Shown here one piece after another: positions 42,042 through 64,000 of a stretch of DNA of 64,000 bases; positions within the stretch are counted from its first letter, which is position 1, and each line of letters starts with the position of its first letter. A program made the translations under genes and the position numbers. The stretch lies in IMG/VR virus record IMGVR_UViG_3300033068_001747. One strand, 5' to 3'. The DNA is from a virus (Duplodnaviria; Caudoviricetes). A model generated the notes under the pieces. The model worked only from the letters and a program-made list of their open reading frames with translations, made no database searches and was not told the origin of the DNA.

Positions 42042-42117
42042 GGTCTCATAGCTCAGGGGTCAGAGCGTCGGTCTCATAAACCGGGGGTCGTAGGTTCAAA
42101 TCCTACTGGGACCACCA
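42042..42117 (+). tRNA. tRNA with CAU anticodon (elongator Met or Ile2), CCA encoded
   Basis: GGTCTCA/TGGGACC acceptor, GCTC/GAGC D stem, TCGGT-CTCATAA-ACCGG anticodon arm, GTAGG-TTCAAAT-CCTAC T arm, ACCA end. Confidence 0.93.
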
Positions 42118-42555: not shown

Positions 42556-43734
42556 ATGAAAATAGATATAAATAAAATAAAAACAACACCATCAGAATTA
42601 GGATTCAACTTCTGTGTATTCGGAAAACCATCTGATGAAATTATAAATTGGTGCAATCACTGGAATTTAAAAATGGAAGATTCTGGTAAATACACAAATA
42701 TTATCTTAAATGATGATACTAAAATCTCTGAAATATTTAATCAACCTAATAAATATGATTATATAGATGGTTTTAGTCCAAACTTAAATAAGCATTTACA
42801 CGTTGGACATTTCTCTAACCTTGTACTAGCTAATGCTTTTCAAAAATTAGGACTAGGAAGTAAGTTTATTGCAATTTTTGGAGATACATTAGAAGGTTCA
42901 GTTCAAAAAGATGATGCTTTAAAATCATATTTTGAATATTGTAAAAACTTTAACTATAATGTAGATGAAATATTCTTTGCATCAGAAATGAAATTAAAAG
43001 ATGAAAGTTTATTAAAAGAAGGTGAAGGTACATACGAAGGTTCTAAAATATTCGATTTAGCAGACGAAAAATTAGTTGGTATAAAAAGTACTGGTTCTAC
43101 ATCTTACTTTTATCAAGATGTTGCTTTAGCAAGTAAATTAAACTCTTCTACATTGTATTTGACCGGTGCAGAACAAGATAATCATTTTAAATCGTTGAAG
43201 AAATTATTCCCAAAAACAAATCACATTGGTTTAGGTTTAGTTCAATTAGACGGTAAAAAAATGTCAAGTAGTGAAGGTAATGTTATTTACATGACCGAAT
43301 TTATAAATAGTTTACTACCATTATTCAATAATGATATAAAGTTAGTTTATAATATTATTGCTGGTCAAATACTTAAATCCAACACAACTTCAAGTAAGTC
43401 AATAGATACAAAGTTGATTGGTAATCCAAAATTATCTTTAGGTTTATATTTAAGTTATACTATGGCACATATTAAAAGCTGTGGTGTTGAAGTACAAGAA
43501 AAACAAGATTTTTATTCTAAACAACTAGAGTTTGCAGAGTTAAAAGCTAAATCTAATTTATCACCAAATATATTATTTGATGCTCTAATAAATCACTGTA
43601 AAAATATAAACAAGTTGTACGAAGTTTTGTACATAAAAGATAATGAAACAAATAAAAAGTTATTCTCTGACTTATTGACAGATTTACATATAGGTATGAA
43701 GAAAATTGGATTATTTCCAGTTGATAAAGTATAA
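42556..43734 (+). CDS. argS: Shortened arginyl-tRNA synthetase-like protein
   Basis: SPNLNKHLHVGH, KSTGSTSYFYQD, YLTGAEQDNHF, GKKMSSSEGNVI, GLYLSYTMAHIKS. Confidence 0.8.
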   Translation: MKIDINKIKTTPSELGFNFCVFGKPSDEIINWCNHWNLKMEDSGKYTNIILNDDTKISEIFNQPNKYDYIDGFSPNLNKHLHVGHFSNLVLANAFQKLGLGSKFIAIFGDTLEGSVQKDDALKSYFEYCKNFNYNVDEIFFASEMKLKDESLLKEGEGTYEGSKIFDLADEKLVGIKSTGSTSYFYQDVALASKLNSSTLYLTGAEQDNHFKSLKKLFPKTNHIGLGLVQLDGKKMSSSEGNVIYMTEFINSLLPLFNNDIKLVYNIIAGQILKSNTTSSKSIDTKLIGNPKLSLGLYLSYTMAHIKSCGVEVQEKQDFYSKQLEFAELKAKSNLSPNILFDALINHCKNINKLYEVLYIKDNETNKKLFSDLLTDLHIGMKKIGLFPVDKV

Positions 43735-62254: not shown

Positions 62255-63313
62255 TTAAACATTTCTTTTATTTGAAAGATAATCAGTATAATTTGCTACA
62301 ATTGAATTTACTTTTTTGAAGTCACGTGGAGTTTTACCAGTAAAATCAACATCTAAGTAAAATAAAAATTCAAAGAAATCTAAATTATATTTATTTATAT
62401 CTCTTACAAGATTTTTATTATTTAAAACCTGAATTATTTTTTCTTGTGTGATTTTATCATTCATATCTTTTAGATAACCGTTCTTGATCATCCATTTTTT
62501 TAGACCGTGAAATCTAACATAAACCTCCGCAGGTGAAGTTAAATACTTAGTATCTTTTTTATCATCAAACATTCCAGAAAACTGATTTTTGAAATCATCT
62601 TCTGCCTCTTTAAATACCTTTTTACCTTCTTCATCATGAACATCCTCATATTTAACATCCACTGCTAATTCAACTAATTTTCTAGAGTAAAAGTCAATTT
62701 TTTCTTGTAATCTTTTCTTACCTTCAGGAGTTCCTAATACAATGTCCTTATCTAAAATATCAACTATATTTGTAAGTTCACTATAATCTTGACTATCAAA
62801 TTCATCACCTCCTAAAATATCATCAACTAAATGTCTAAGTTCATGAATAATGATATGAGGTGCAGCAAATGAACTAAGTTTCTTCTCATCAATTATAATT
62901 GCAGTAACTAATTGCATTTTCTCATTAAAGTGTCTAAAGTAACAAGCCATAGTACCTTCATTCTCACCAATTATCTCCATTGTCTTACTATCAACACAAA
63001 CAAACTTTATATCTTTAACAATAGATATGACTTTTTGTTTTTTGATAGAGTCAATATTATTAGTTGTTTCAATATCTTTGATTAGTTCTGCTCTAATCTT
63101 TTCAATAAAAGCACTCTCACTTTTTGAAGGTTGATTATTTATATCGTTTATTGTAGCATCTATTTCCTTACCTGTCATATGAGGTAAAGTTTTCTTACCA
63201 AAATAATGATTTATCCCAATTGCAATAGCTAATCCAACAATAAGTTGTTTCCAGGTTACTTCAACCTCGTTTTTTTCATTGAGTAACTCCTCACTAGATT
63301 TAATATGCTTCAT
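62255..63313 (-). CDS. Tagged, membrane-anchored zincin metallopeptidase-like protein
   Basis: MKHIKSSEELLNE at 63313; TM LIVGLAIAIGI; HELRH; downstream PAEVYVR. Confidence 0.65.
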   Translation of the reverse strand: MKHIKSSEELLNEKNEVEVTWKQLIVGLAIAIGINHYFGKKTLPHMTGKEIDATINDINNQPSKSESAFIEKIRAELIKDIETTNNIDSIKKQKVISIVKDIKFVCVDSKTMEIIGENEGTMACYFRHFNEKMQLVTAIIIDEKKLSSFAAPHIIIHELRHLVDDILGGDEFDSQDYSELTNIVDILDKDIVLGTPEGKKRLQEKIDFYSRKLVELAVDVKYEDVHDEEGKKVFKEAEDDFKNQFSGMFDDKKDTKYLTSPAEVYVRFHGLKKWMIKNGYLKDMNDKITQEKIIQVLNNKNLVRDINKYNLDFFEFLFYLDVDFTGKTPRDFKKVNSIVANYTDYLSNKRNV

Positions 63314-63337
63314 AGTGTATATATTAAAATTTATTAT

Positions 63338-63345
63338 TATATTTG
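63338..63345 (+). promoter_or_regulatory. TATATTTG host-sigma promoter for leuS
   Basis: 31 nt upstream of ATG 63377. Confidence 0.55.
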
Positions 63346-63376
63346 CAACTAAACTTGAATTAAAAATATAAATAAA

Positions 63377-64000
63377 ATGAATGATAATTATAAATACGTA
63401 ACTGTTATGTTTCCCTACCCTTCTGGTAGTGGATTGCATTGTGGACACTGGTACAATTATGCAATTATAGATAGTTACTGTAGATACTTGAGATATAAAG
63501 GTGAACAAGTTTTTCAACCATTTGGTTATGACTCATTTGGTTTACCTGCAGAAAACTACGCGAAAAAAGTGGGTAGAGACCCACGAGAAGTTACTTACGA
63601 AAATATAGAAAACTTTAGAGGACAGATGAAAAACATGGACACTCAATATGAGGAAATGTTGATTACTTCTGATCCTAACTACATTGAATACACACAATGG
63701 TTGTTTAAACAATTGTATGATAAAGGATTGGCTTATAAAAAAGATGGTGAAGTTGACTTTTGTAATAGTTGTGAAACCGTATTGGCTAGAGAACAAGTAA
63801 AAGATGGTAAATGTGATAGATGTTCAAATGAAGTTGAAAAGAAAACATTGAACCAATGGTATTTTAAAATCACTGATTATAAAGAAAGATTGATTGCAGG
63901 TTTGGACCATATAGATTTCCCTGAATCTACCAAGAAAGCTCAAAGAAATTGGTTGGAAAACCAACATGATTGGTGTGTATCAAGACAAAGAAGTTGGGGT
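63377..64000 (+). CDS. leuS: Leucyl-tRNA synthetase lacking the CP1 editing domain (partial, runs off the right edge)
   Basis: Manual translation: MFPYPSGSGLHCGH, GYDSFGLPAENYA, TQWLF, CNSCETVLAREQV...CDRC, QWYFKITDY, QRNWLENQHDWCVSRQRSWG. Confidence 0.9.
   Translation, partial: MNDNYKYVTVMFPYPSGSGLHCGHWYNYAIIDSYCRYLRYKGEQVFQPFGYDSFGLPAENYAKKVGRDPREVTYENIENFRGQMKNMDTQYEEMLITSDPNYIEYTQWLFKQLYDKGLAYKKDGEVDFCNSCETVLAREQVKDGKCDRCSNEVEKKTLNQWYFKITDYKERLIAGLDHIDFPESTKKAQRNWLENQHDWCVSRQRSWG

Follow-up and report, generated by a model that had tools for sequence, protein, structure and literature searches.

The 64,000-nucleotide window analyzed here (the whole stretch G000:C1:32001-96000 of the 132,473-bp IMG/VR record G000) ends within a gene for a leucyl-tRNA synthetase (LeuRS) of 418 amino acids, here called mini-LeuRS. 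This protein is a complete, conserved and well-folded LeuRS core without the CP1 editing domain, the ZN-2 module and the C-terminal domain, and it represents a real, selected gene family of huge phages. We think it probable that it is a functional, minimal and editing-free enzyme whose own synthesis is insulated from Leu-tRNA shortage. The size of the enzyme tells less of its function than do the restriction of its leucine codons, the linkage of related genes to tRNA-Leu genes and the way in which related synthetases avoid their cognate amino acid. The gene starts at window position 63377 on the plus strand, and 208 of its 418 codons (63377..64000) lie inside the window; extending the translation with downstream DNA places the stop 633 nt past the window end, at G000:C1:96633 (the whole gene is L002:1378-2634). 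No paper on a phage LeuRS without CP1, or on this half-size family, was found in the literature searched, and to our knowledge mini-LeuRS would be the smallest natural LeuRS.

A preliminary description of this DNA had called attention to an HCGH version of the HIGH signature and to a QRNW-LENQH-DWCVSRQRSWG junction, and had read the junction as deletion of the whole CP1 domain. Translation of the open reading frame (ORF) and the alignments agree with it on all of these points. HCGH occupies residues 21-24 (63437..63448, +). QRNW, the final motif 5' of the CP1 insertion point, is found at residues 189-192 (63941..63952, +), the five-residue linker LENQH stands at the CP1 site (63953..63967, +; predicted local distance difference test, pLDDT, of 91-96 for the block) and DWCVSRQRSWG, the motif directly 3' of the insertion point, follows at residues 198-208 (63968..64000, +). 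In an alignment to Thermus thermophilus LeuRS, query residues 195 and 197 correspond to residues 226 and 420, leaving a CP1 gap of about 194 residues. Since the ORF continues past the window and stops at 418 amino acids, no CP1 lies further along the gene, and the protein has no match to PF13603, the CP1 editing domain.

The losses extend beyond those listed in the preliminary description, which was right about CP1 and incomplete about the rest, as ZN-2, the leucine-specific domain and the C-terminal domain are gone as well. Query residues ~209-218 jump the ZN-2 region (T. thermophilus 436-487), residues 290 and 295 correspond to T. thermophilus 578 and 637 at the site of the leucine-specific domain, and the alignment ends near T. 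thermophilus residue 780, ahead of the C-terminal domain. Domain bookkeeping against the nearest full-length relatives, using an alignment of 91 LeuRS sequences, gives 5 residues for CP1 in mini-LeuRS versus 153-606, 5 for ZN-2 versus ~57, and neither the N-terminal stretch (~30 residues in the relatives) nor the C-terminal tail (~86 residues). The leucine-specific domain is likewise missing from these nearest full-length relatives, so its loss is not peculiar to the phage form. Beyond the window the protein reads PIPIEGETDTMDTF where five residues stand for ZN-2, and the tetrapeptide NQGE is found at the site of the leucine-specific domain.

The protein keeps all that is needed for forming leucyl-adenylate (Leu-AMP) and holding the tRNA acceptor end, namely the Rossmann core, the leucine pocket, the ZN-1 module and a helical domain. 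HCGH and KMSKS (residues 295-299) are conserved across the family and the 91 aligned LeuRS sequences; H21, G23 and H24 of the HIGH signature are at least 90% conserved, with HCGH, HIGH, HVGH or HLGH in relatives. The leucine-pocket residues D52, H253 and H257 are invariant or nearly so, the two histidines lying in the motif GGSEHACMH beyond the window, and D198, R203 and R205 are invariant. All four cysteines of the ZN-1 module (C129, C132, C146 and C149; 63761..63823, +) align with ZN-1 of T. thermophilus and Mycoplasma mobile LeuRS, with conservation of 90% or more for C129, C146 and C149. The AlphaFold2 (AF2) model ends in a helical bundle (residues 311-417), whose last helix is 413-417.

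The identity of the protein as a LeuRS is consistent among several comparisons. The best NCBIfam match is leuS_bact (TIGR00396) at 369 bits, versus 145 bits for metG (MetRS) and 130 bits for ileS. The AF2 model is compact and confident (pLDDT 94.6, predicted template modelling score 0.93). A sequence search of PDB places M. mobile LeuRS (3ZIU) at the top with an E value of 7e-78, and Foldseek also returns 3ZIU first (template modelling score on the query 0.92), then other bacterial LeuRS; all 45 of the 45 best matches are LeuRS.

Related genes are widespread. Thirty loci with 59-95% identity were found in IMG/VR, on phage records as long as 519 kb, and JGI, ENA, NCBI and Logan yielded over 120 protein clusters of 75-97% identity and ~418 amino acids each. 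The 30 IMG/VR ORFs encode 410-442 amino acids except in L060 (487 amino acids, with a C-terminal extension) and L063, where a premature stop shortens the ORF to 263 amino acids. Twenty-six distinct members at 59-95% identity share WLEN[Q/L]H-DWC[V/I]SRQR, the ZN-2 junction PIP-x5-DT.DTF and an end inside the helical domain. A misassembled junction, considered in the preliminary description, is excluded by this conservation down to 59% identity. In the family alignment 131 of 418 positions are invariant, catalytic motifs among them; for pairs with unsaturated synonymous sites the ratio of nonsynonymous to synonymous substitution rates (dN/dS) is 0.03-0.14, and flanking genes diverge much faster than LeuRS. 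The DNA was detected in metagenomes of wastewater, freshwater, groundwater and bioreactors, with sequencing runs that come from 14 or more studies. Contigs of ~90% identity from four metatranscriptome studies cover parts of the gene; the runs had been picked by means of this gene, these contigs could include DNA carry-over, and expression cannot be ranked from contigs.

The assignment of the gene to a phage, also made in the preliminary description, is borne out by the genomes in which relatives occur. Related complete or near-complete phage genomes measure 452-735 kb, with terminal repeats on the complete ones, and LR745206, an uncultured phage of 634,780 bp in GenBank, carries a LeuRS copy at 68.6% identity. 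Unclassified contigs of 635-649 kb bear copies that are 92-96% identical (P0004, P0063 and P0074). IMG/VR labels record G000 a provirus that is 60% complete. CheckV rates a 180-kb fragment of a close relative as 30% complete; the close relatives are fragments, with completeness ratings of 15-30%. Record G000 was therefore probably trimmed from a huge phage genome of lytic type and ~600 kb, and we regard the provirus label as doubtful.

The leucine codons of the gene set it apart from the rest of the genome. TTG accounts for 24 of the 26 leucine codons of the window's LeuRS versus 10% genome-wide (p = 2.7e-22); genome-wide, 61% of leucine codons are TTA. LeuRS is the sole TTG outlier among 125 ORFs, and when all ORFs were scored for all amino acids without preselection it was the top genuine outlier both in G000 and in the complete genome of the 476-kb relative G008. 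Base composition or recent transfer was considered as a cause and rejected, because the G+C content at third positions of its non-leucine codons (0.149) matches the genome mean of 0.148; all other A/G codon pairs are normal too. Most relatives share the TTG bias, and it is retained where synonymous sites are saturated, at 18/18, 19/19, 20/20 and 28/33 TTG codons. Other members reach a similar state with different codons. In L056, 19 of 20 leucine codons are CTG, and a tRNA-Leu(CAG) gene is present in the array just upstream. L062 uses CTT and CTG alone besides three TTG, and cluster representatives P0123 and P0126 avoid TTA and favour CTN codons. The common rule is that the main leucine codon of the phage is avoided for a rare one, which is usually read by a dedicated C34 tRNA.

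Some related synthetases go further and avoid their cognate amino acid altogether. The LeuRS of the 735,411-bp phage LR756501 has no leucine in 508 amino acids, and conserved leucine positions are replaced, for example in GNIHMGH and FGMPAEN. IleRS-like ORFs of LR745206 (L004:901-3108) and G007 (L093:889-3117), which encode 735 and 742 amino acids with 73% mutual identity, contain no isoleucine. The preliminary description had mentioned further reduced synthetase-like genes in the same genome, and these are present. A 392-amino-acid ORF at window positions 42556-43734 (+) has no arginine versus 15 expected, the strongest amino-acid absence in the 132-kb record; its identity as an ArgRS depends on a weak PF00750 match of 20.6 bits, under the cut-off. 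Past the window, at G000:C1:103263-104105 (+), a 280-amino-acid GluRS-like ORF that begins MVTRVAPSPTGFFHLG uses GAG for 13 of its 21 glutamate codons versus ~24% genome-wide (p = 9e-5). A scan of the complete genome G008 for ORFs without one amino acid found no synthetase of this kind, so total avoidance of the cognate amino acid is not universal. A tRNA-Met gene at 42042-42117 was also observed just upstream of the arginine-free ORF.

In several of the more distant family members the LeuRS gene is physically linked to tRNA-Leu genes. At L047, L056, L057, L058/59 and L060 it follows same-strand arrays rich in tRNA-Leu at a distance of 16-1300 nt. Seven consecutive tRNA-Leu genes precede it in L056; in L058 there are five, the last ending 22 nt ahead of the LeuRS start codon, and in L060 a tRNA-Leu(CAA) gene ends 16 nt ahead of the start codon. 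The CP1-less LeuRS of LR756501 (L068:2486-4012) comes after five tRNA-Leu genes and an ORF for a GIY-YIG endonuclease. Many arrays mix long-armed tRNA-Leu genes of 81-92 nt with tRNAs of 74-76 nt that have Leu anticodons and lack the long variable arm. These short tRNAs score as good tRNAs by Rfam (51-60 bits). Among 32 tRNAs with Leu anticodons, 31 have A73, a weak sign given that A73 is common in these phages anyway. G1-U72 was rejected as a leucine-specific identity mark; many non-Leu tRNAs of LR745206 carry it.

The short tRNAs may be related to what the enzyme has lost. The leucine-specific domain prefers tRNAs with a large variable-arm loop, and the LeuRS C-terminal domain touches the tRNA elbow and the long arm. 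Loss of the modules that read arm and elbow alongside armless tRNA-Leu genes is suggestive of a possible connection between the two. Positive charge as a replacement for the lost tRNA-binding domains was also considered, and nothing consistent emerged (isoelectric points of 5.5-8.4; the final 120 residues carry a net charge between -2 and +3). Switched tRNA sizes were seen in both directions at 341-421 kb in LR745206 (L005, L010, L011 and others) and at 218-272 kb in G008. Besides the 74-76-nt tRNAs with Leu anticodons, Lys, Asn, Gln, Glu, Ile, Thr, Met, Arg, Pro and Cys tRNAs, which are normally short, measure 82-90 nt and usually adjoin a normal-sized copy with the same anticodon. ARAGORN also assigns four-base anticodons (gtag, acat) to tRNAs in the arrays, at 407364-407437 in LR745206 and 257917-257989 in G008; these may read frameshifts or be odd in some other way.

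Two of these arrays are preceded by putative leader regions. In L060 (2224-2352) the 23-codon leader ORF MKTTLSLSLSLSLSLSGWTNRAM and, after it, an intrinsic terminator stand ahead of tRNA genes for Leu and Ser in an array and then LeuRS. The leucine codons TTG, TTA and CTA of this leader match the anticodons CAA, UAA and UAG of the array, folding of the region is more favourable than that of shuffled versions (z = -3.6), and the end of the leader ORF, ACCGGG, can pair with the 5' arm of the terminator as in classical attenuators. In LR756501 (L068:807-941) a 22-codon ORF has seven leucines and uses all six leucine codons; a terminator with a 13-bp stem (912-941) and the tRNA-Leu array come next. 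The 63-nt region 5' of the window's LeuRS leaves no room for a leader peptide or T-box, and no Leu-rich small ORF was found there. An Rfam scan that included L002 returned tRNAs only, with no T-box or Leu leader family.

Natural loss of CP1 proved less rare than supposed. The preliminary description had called it rare and named M. mobile, the organism from which it is known in the literature searched (PMC3643597, PMC3553970); counting in a library of 50%-identity representatives, with hits aligned from the 150 best, gives at least nine further clusters without CP1 (P0126, P0133, P0139, P0147, P0168, P0231, P0232, P0237 and P0248). All of them keep ZN-2, and the C-terminal domain is kept in eight of the nine; in P0139, P0147, P0168, P0232 and P0237, ZN-2 spans 50-59 residues and the C-terminal tail 80-91. 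The mini form is a single 50%-identity cluster, represented by P0122. The LeuRS of LR756501, at 35% identity, lacks CP1, the leucine-specific domain and the C-terminal domain and keeps ZN-2. P0123 (530 amino acids, 56% identity) combines the mini scaffold with a reduced CP1 of 120 residues that still matches PF13603; its context is phage-like and a GIY-YIG endonuclease adjoins. CP1 loss is therefore a recurrent event in viral and other metagenomic lineages.

A gene for editing in trans, suggested in the preliminary description as something to look for, was not detected: neither the 132-kb record nor any of five relatives of 97% or higher completeness showed a free-standing CP1. The PF13603 search gave nothing in the record, and nothing over the cut-off in LR745206 or those five relatives. 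Weak matches below the cut-off were found solely inside the IleRS-like ORFs, and a free-standing CP1 domain was rejected on this ground. Both IleRS-like proteins retain their own CP1 editing domain with the motifs WTTQPWT and GTGLVH. The phages have therefore not abandoned proofreading as a whole; among their synthetases the loss concerns LeuRS specifically. The idea of the preliminary description, that a set of minimal synthetases trades fidelity for size, is not supported in that general form.

The reading of mini-LeuRS as a functional enzyme can be set out as follows. Judging from the retained core and the gene contexts, it would charge tRNA-Leu, mainly that of the phage itself, and so add leucylation capacity in a cell flooded with AT-rich, TTA-heavy phage mRNA. 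Adjacency to tRNA-Leu arrays in relatives and purifying selection give indirect support for charging. The enzyme would work without post-transfer proofreading, and clean-up could be left to pre-transfer hydrolysis or to the host LeuRS. Demand for the TTG-reading tRNA would be low, so that LeuRS could still be made when Leu-tRNA for common codons is exhausted. Such insulation would avert a collapse in which Leu-tRNA shortage blocks synthesis of the very enzyme that relieves it. In some relatives the LeuRS gene would also be transcribed behind a Leu-rich leader peptide with its terminator and a tRNA-Leu array, an arrangement that may switch it on when leucine codons are read slowly.

Several observations weigh against this reading. 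Deletion of the C-terminal domain, which mini-LeuRS lacks, abolished aminoacylation by T. thermophilus and E. coli LeuRS (PMC3561953). The leuS_bact score of 369 bits falls under the curated cut-off of 548.4, a shortfall due to the missing domains. The helical domain at residues 311-417 aligns weakly to T. thermophilus residues 729-767, without a Pfam Anticodon_1 match. Beyond the closest clade, no neighbouring gene is commonly conserved that could be a partner for tRNA binding or editing in trans. Within the 132-kb record no tRNA-Leu was found, the only tRNAs being two copies of tRNA-Met and one tRNA-Cys; fragments from close relatives likewise have few tRNAs, and for the whole phage the absence carries no information, as the record is only part of a genome. 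Six sub-lineages (L044, L046, L051, L054, L058 and L061) retain many TTA codons, and four of the six show little or no TTG bias. Finally, the codon restriction would equally fit positive feedback via the dedicated tRNA instead of insulation. Weak tRNA-like matches were also noticed ~600 nt 3' of LeuRS in two close relatives; in the window's genome the corresponding position falls inside an ORF.

The same loss of the C-terminal domain and the low NCBIfam score would suit a different role, in which mini-LeuRS is a LeuRS-derived paralog that does not charge tRNA and instead uses Leu-AMP formation or tRNA-Leu binding for a regulatory or other non-translational purpose. There are precedents in the LeuRS-I of Sulfolobaceae and the LeuRS2 of haloarchaea (PMC9437257). 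We consider this unlikely. A paralog of this kind would hardly be expected to keep ZN-1, KMSKS and the helical domain under strong purifying selection or to have tRNA-Leu arrays and Leu leader ORFs as physical neighbours, and restriction of its own leucine codons makes most sense if the product relieves Leu-tRNA shortage. Moreover, the M. mobile enzyme is active although it has neither CP1 nor a leucine-specific domain.

Another explanation, which can overlap with the functional reading, is that mini-LeuRS acts as a bypass or immunity enzyme, replacing the host LeuRS after the phage or a host defence has disabled it or particular tRNA-Leu species. Loss of CP1 would take away the target site of editing-site inhibitors, and the structural neighbours include AgnB2 (5AH5), the self-immunity LeuRS against agrocin 84, and complexes with editing-site benzoxaboroles. 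Total cognate avoidance in related phage synthetases implies that the cognate aminoacyl-tRNA can be nearly absent when they are made, and interception of host translation by huge phages is proposed in the text of Al-Shayeb et al. (PMC7162821). On the other side, we identified no gene for an inhibitor, toxin or nuclease here, and the IleRS retains CP1. A blocked host LeuRS would also leave TTG unreadable; restriction to one isoacceptor therefore points to limiting capacity rather than to an enzyme knock-out, and we rate this explanation as somewhat less likely still than a paralog. That the gene is an assembly artefact or a decaying fragment, as its unusual length and the premature stop of L063 might suggest, is excluded for practical purposes by the recurrence of this junction and length across 30 independent IMG/VR loci and over 120 protein clusters, the low dN/dS, the compact and confident fold and the occurrence of the DNA in so many studies.

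If mini-LeuRS is indeed a functional, insulated synthetase, it could be part of a wider, shortage-responsive module for leucylation in these phages. We put this forward tentatively, as a possibility that falls short of probable. Leu-rich leader peptides and terminators would sense slow reading of leucine codons and release transcription of phage tRNA-Leu genes, including the armless species of 74-76 nt. A LeuRS without the domains that read arm and elbow could serve these armless tRNAs, perhaps as a pair that is partly orthogonal to that of the host. The mRNA for this LeuRS would be insulated by a rare codon read by a C34 tRNA, or by the use of no leucine at all in the 735-kb phage. Synthetases without their own amino acid (Leu, Ile, Arg) may then reflect a design rule of huge phages for self-starting translation.

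The closest known counterpart is the LeuRS of M. mobile (PDB 3ZIU, ~637 amino acids), which is active and error-prone and lacks CP1 and the leucine-specific domain (PMC3643597, PMC3553970). Its tetrapeptide GKDG restores charging to E. coli LeuRS without the leucine-specific domain (PMC3643597). Both enzymes have a bacterial-type core with ZN-1, a short peptide in place of CP1 and a tetrapeptide at the leucine-specific site, GKDG there and NQGE here. The phage enzyme differs in being ~220 amino acids shorter, in a CP1 linker of 5 versus 9 residues, in having no match to residues 275-356 of the 3ZIU chain (the ZN-2 region), and in lacking the N-terminal helix and the C-terminal elbow domain. 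The M. mobile type as a whole (~610-640 amino acids) keeps ZN-2 and the C-terminal domain, whereas the phage form is without both. M. mobile LeuRS is also cellular, and the phage enzyme is viral with its own leucine codons limited to one rare codon. Canonical bacterial LeuRS (T. thermophilus 2V0C/1H3N, E. coli 4AQ7) shares the core, HIGH, KMSKS, the leucine pocket, ZN-1 and, by a weak alignment, the helical domain after KMSKS, and differs by CP1 (~194 residues versus 5), ZN-2 (~57 versus 5) and the last ~86 residues with the C-terminal domain, which are gone from the phage enzyme.

LeuRS-I of Sulfolobaceae and LeuRS2 of haloarchaea are extra copies of LeuRS in which the editing domain is disrupted and the C-terminus has diverged (PMC9437257). 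LeuRS-I forms leucyl-adenylate and binds tRNA-Leu without aminoacylation (PMC9437257). In contrast to mini-LeuRS, these proteins are archaeal-type, full-length and cellular, have no linkage to tRNA-Leu arrays and no reported codon self-restriction. A similarity to the human mitochondrial system lies in the armless Leu-anticodon tRNAs of 74-76 nt that related phages encode. Human mitochondrial LeuRS is editing-defective and is paired with a class-I-like tRNA-Leu without the long variable arm. It retains a degenerate CP1 fold and the C-terminal domain, and the phages, unlike the mitochondrial system, additionally keep long-armed tRNA-Leu genes.

Theory on selective charging (Elf et al. in 2003, Alves and Savageau in 2005) reportedly predicts that isoacceptors for rare codons stay charged when charging is limited, and is said to imply that enzymes that relieve a shortage should shun the scarce amino acid or codon. 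The genes described here would be a one-gene extreme of this, with 92-100% of one rare codon or no cognate residues, and they are viral synthetases where the theory deals with cellular biosynthetic enzymes. Huge-phage synthetases as such have been described; one genome can encode as many as 15 of them and as many as 67 tRNAs, and their suggested role is in charging phage tRNA variants; the largest genomes belong to the Mahaphage clade with predicted Bacteroidetes hosts (text of Al-Shayeb et al. 2020, PMC7162821). The genomes are of the same type as here (the LeuRS of LR745206 being 68.6% and that of LR756501 35% identical), and the main text of that paper describes no domain loss, missing editing domain, codon restriction or cognate avoidance (PMC7162821).

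These findings bear on several subjects. With the C-terminal domain absent, one has to ask how tRNA-Leu is held and recognized by a class I core that is nearly minimal, a matter with a bearing on module-addition models of synthetase evolution and on engineering of LeuRS/tRNA pairs that are small or orthogonal. The loss of proofreading in LeuRS is no Mycoplasma curiosity, and it occurs in a phage group whose IleRS keeps editing. The TTG restriction together with a Leu-free LeuRS, an Ile-free IleRS and an Arg-free ArgRS-like protein is direct genomic evidence for a testable principle, that an enzyme which relieves scarcity of a charged tRNA is designed in such a way that it can be made without that tRNA. 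This suggests that huge phages actively manage translation capacity during infection.

Two neighbouring features complete the description of the locus. Upstream, LeuRS is separated from a divergent minus-strand gene by the AT-rich 63-nt intergenic region at 63314..63376 noted above; the start codon of that gene is at 63311-63313 (-), and its protein starts MKHIKSS, as read from the sequence. Downstream of the LeuRS neighbourhood, L002:6748-6999 (-), which is G000:C1:100747-100998, encodes the C-terminal part of a Clp/Hsp100-type ATPase with the motif GARPLKRAIQ.

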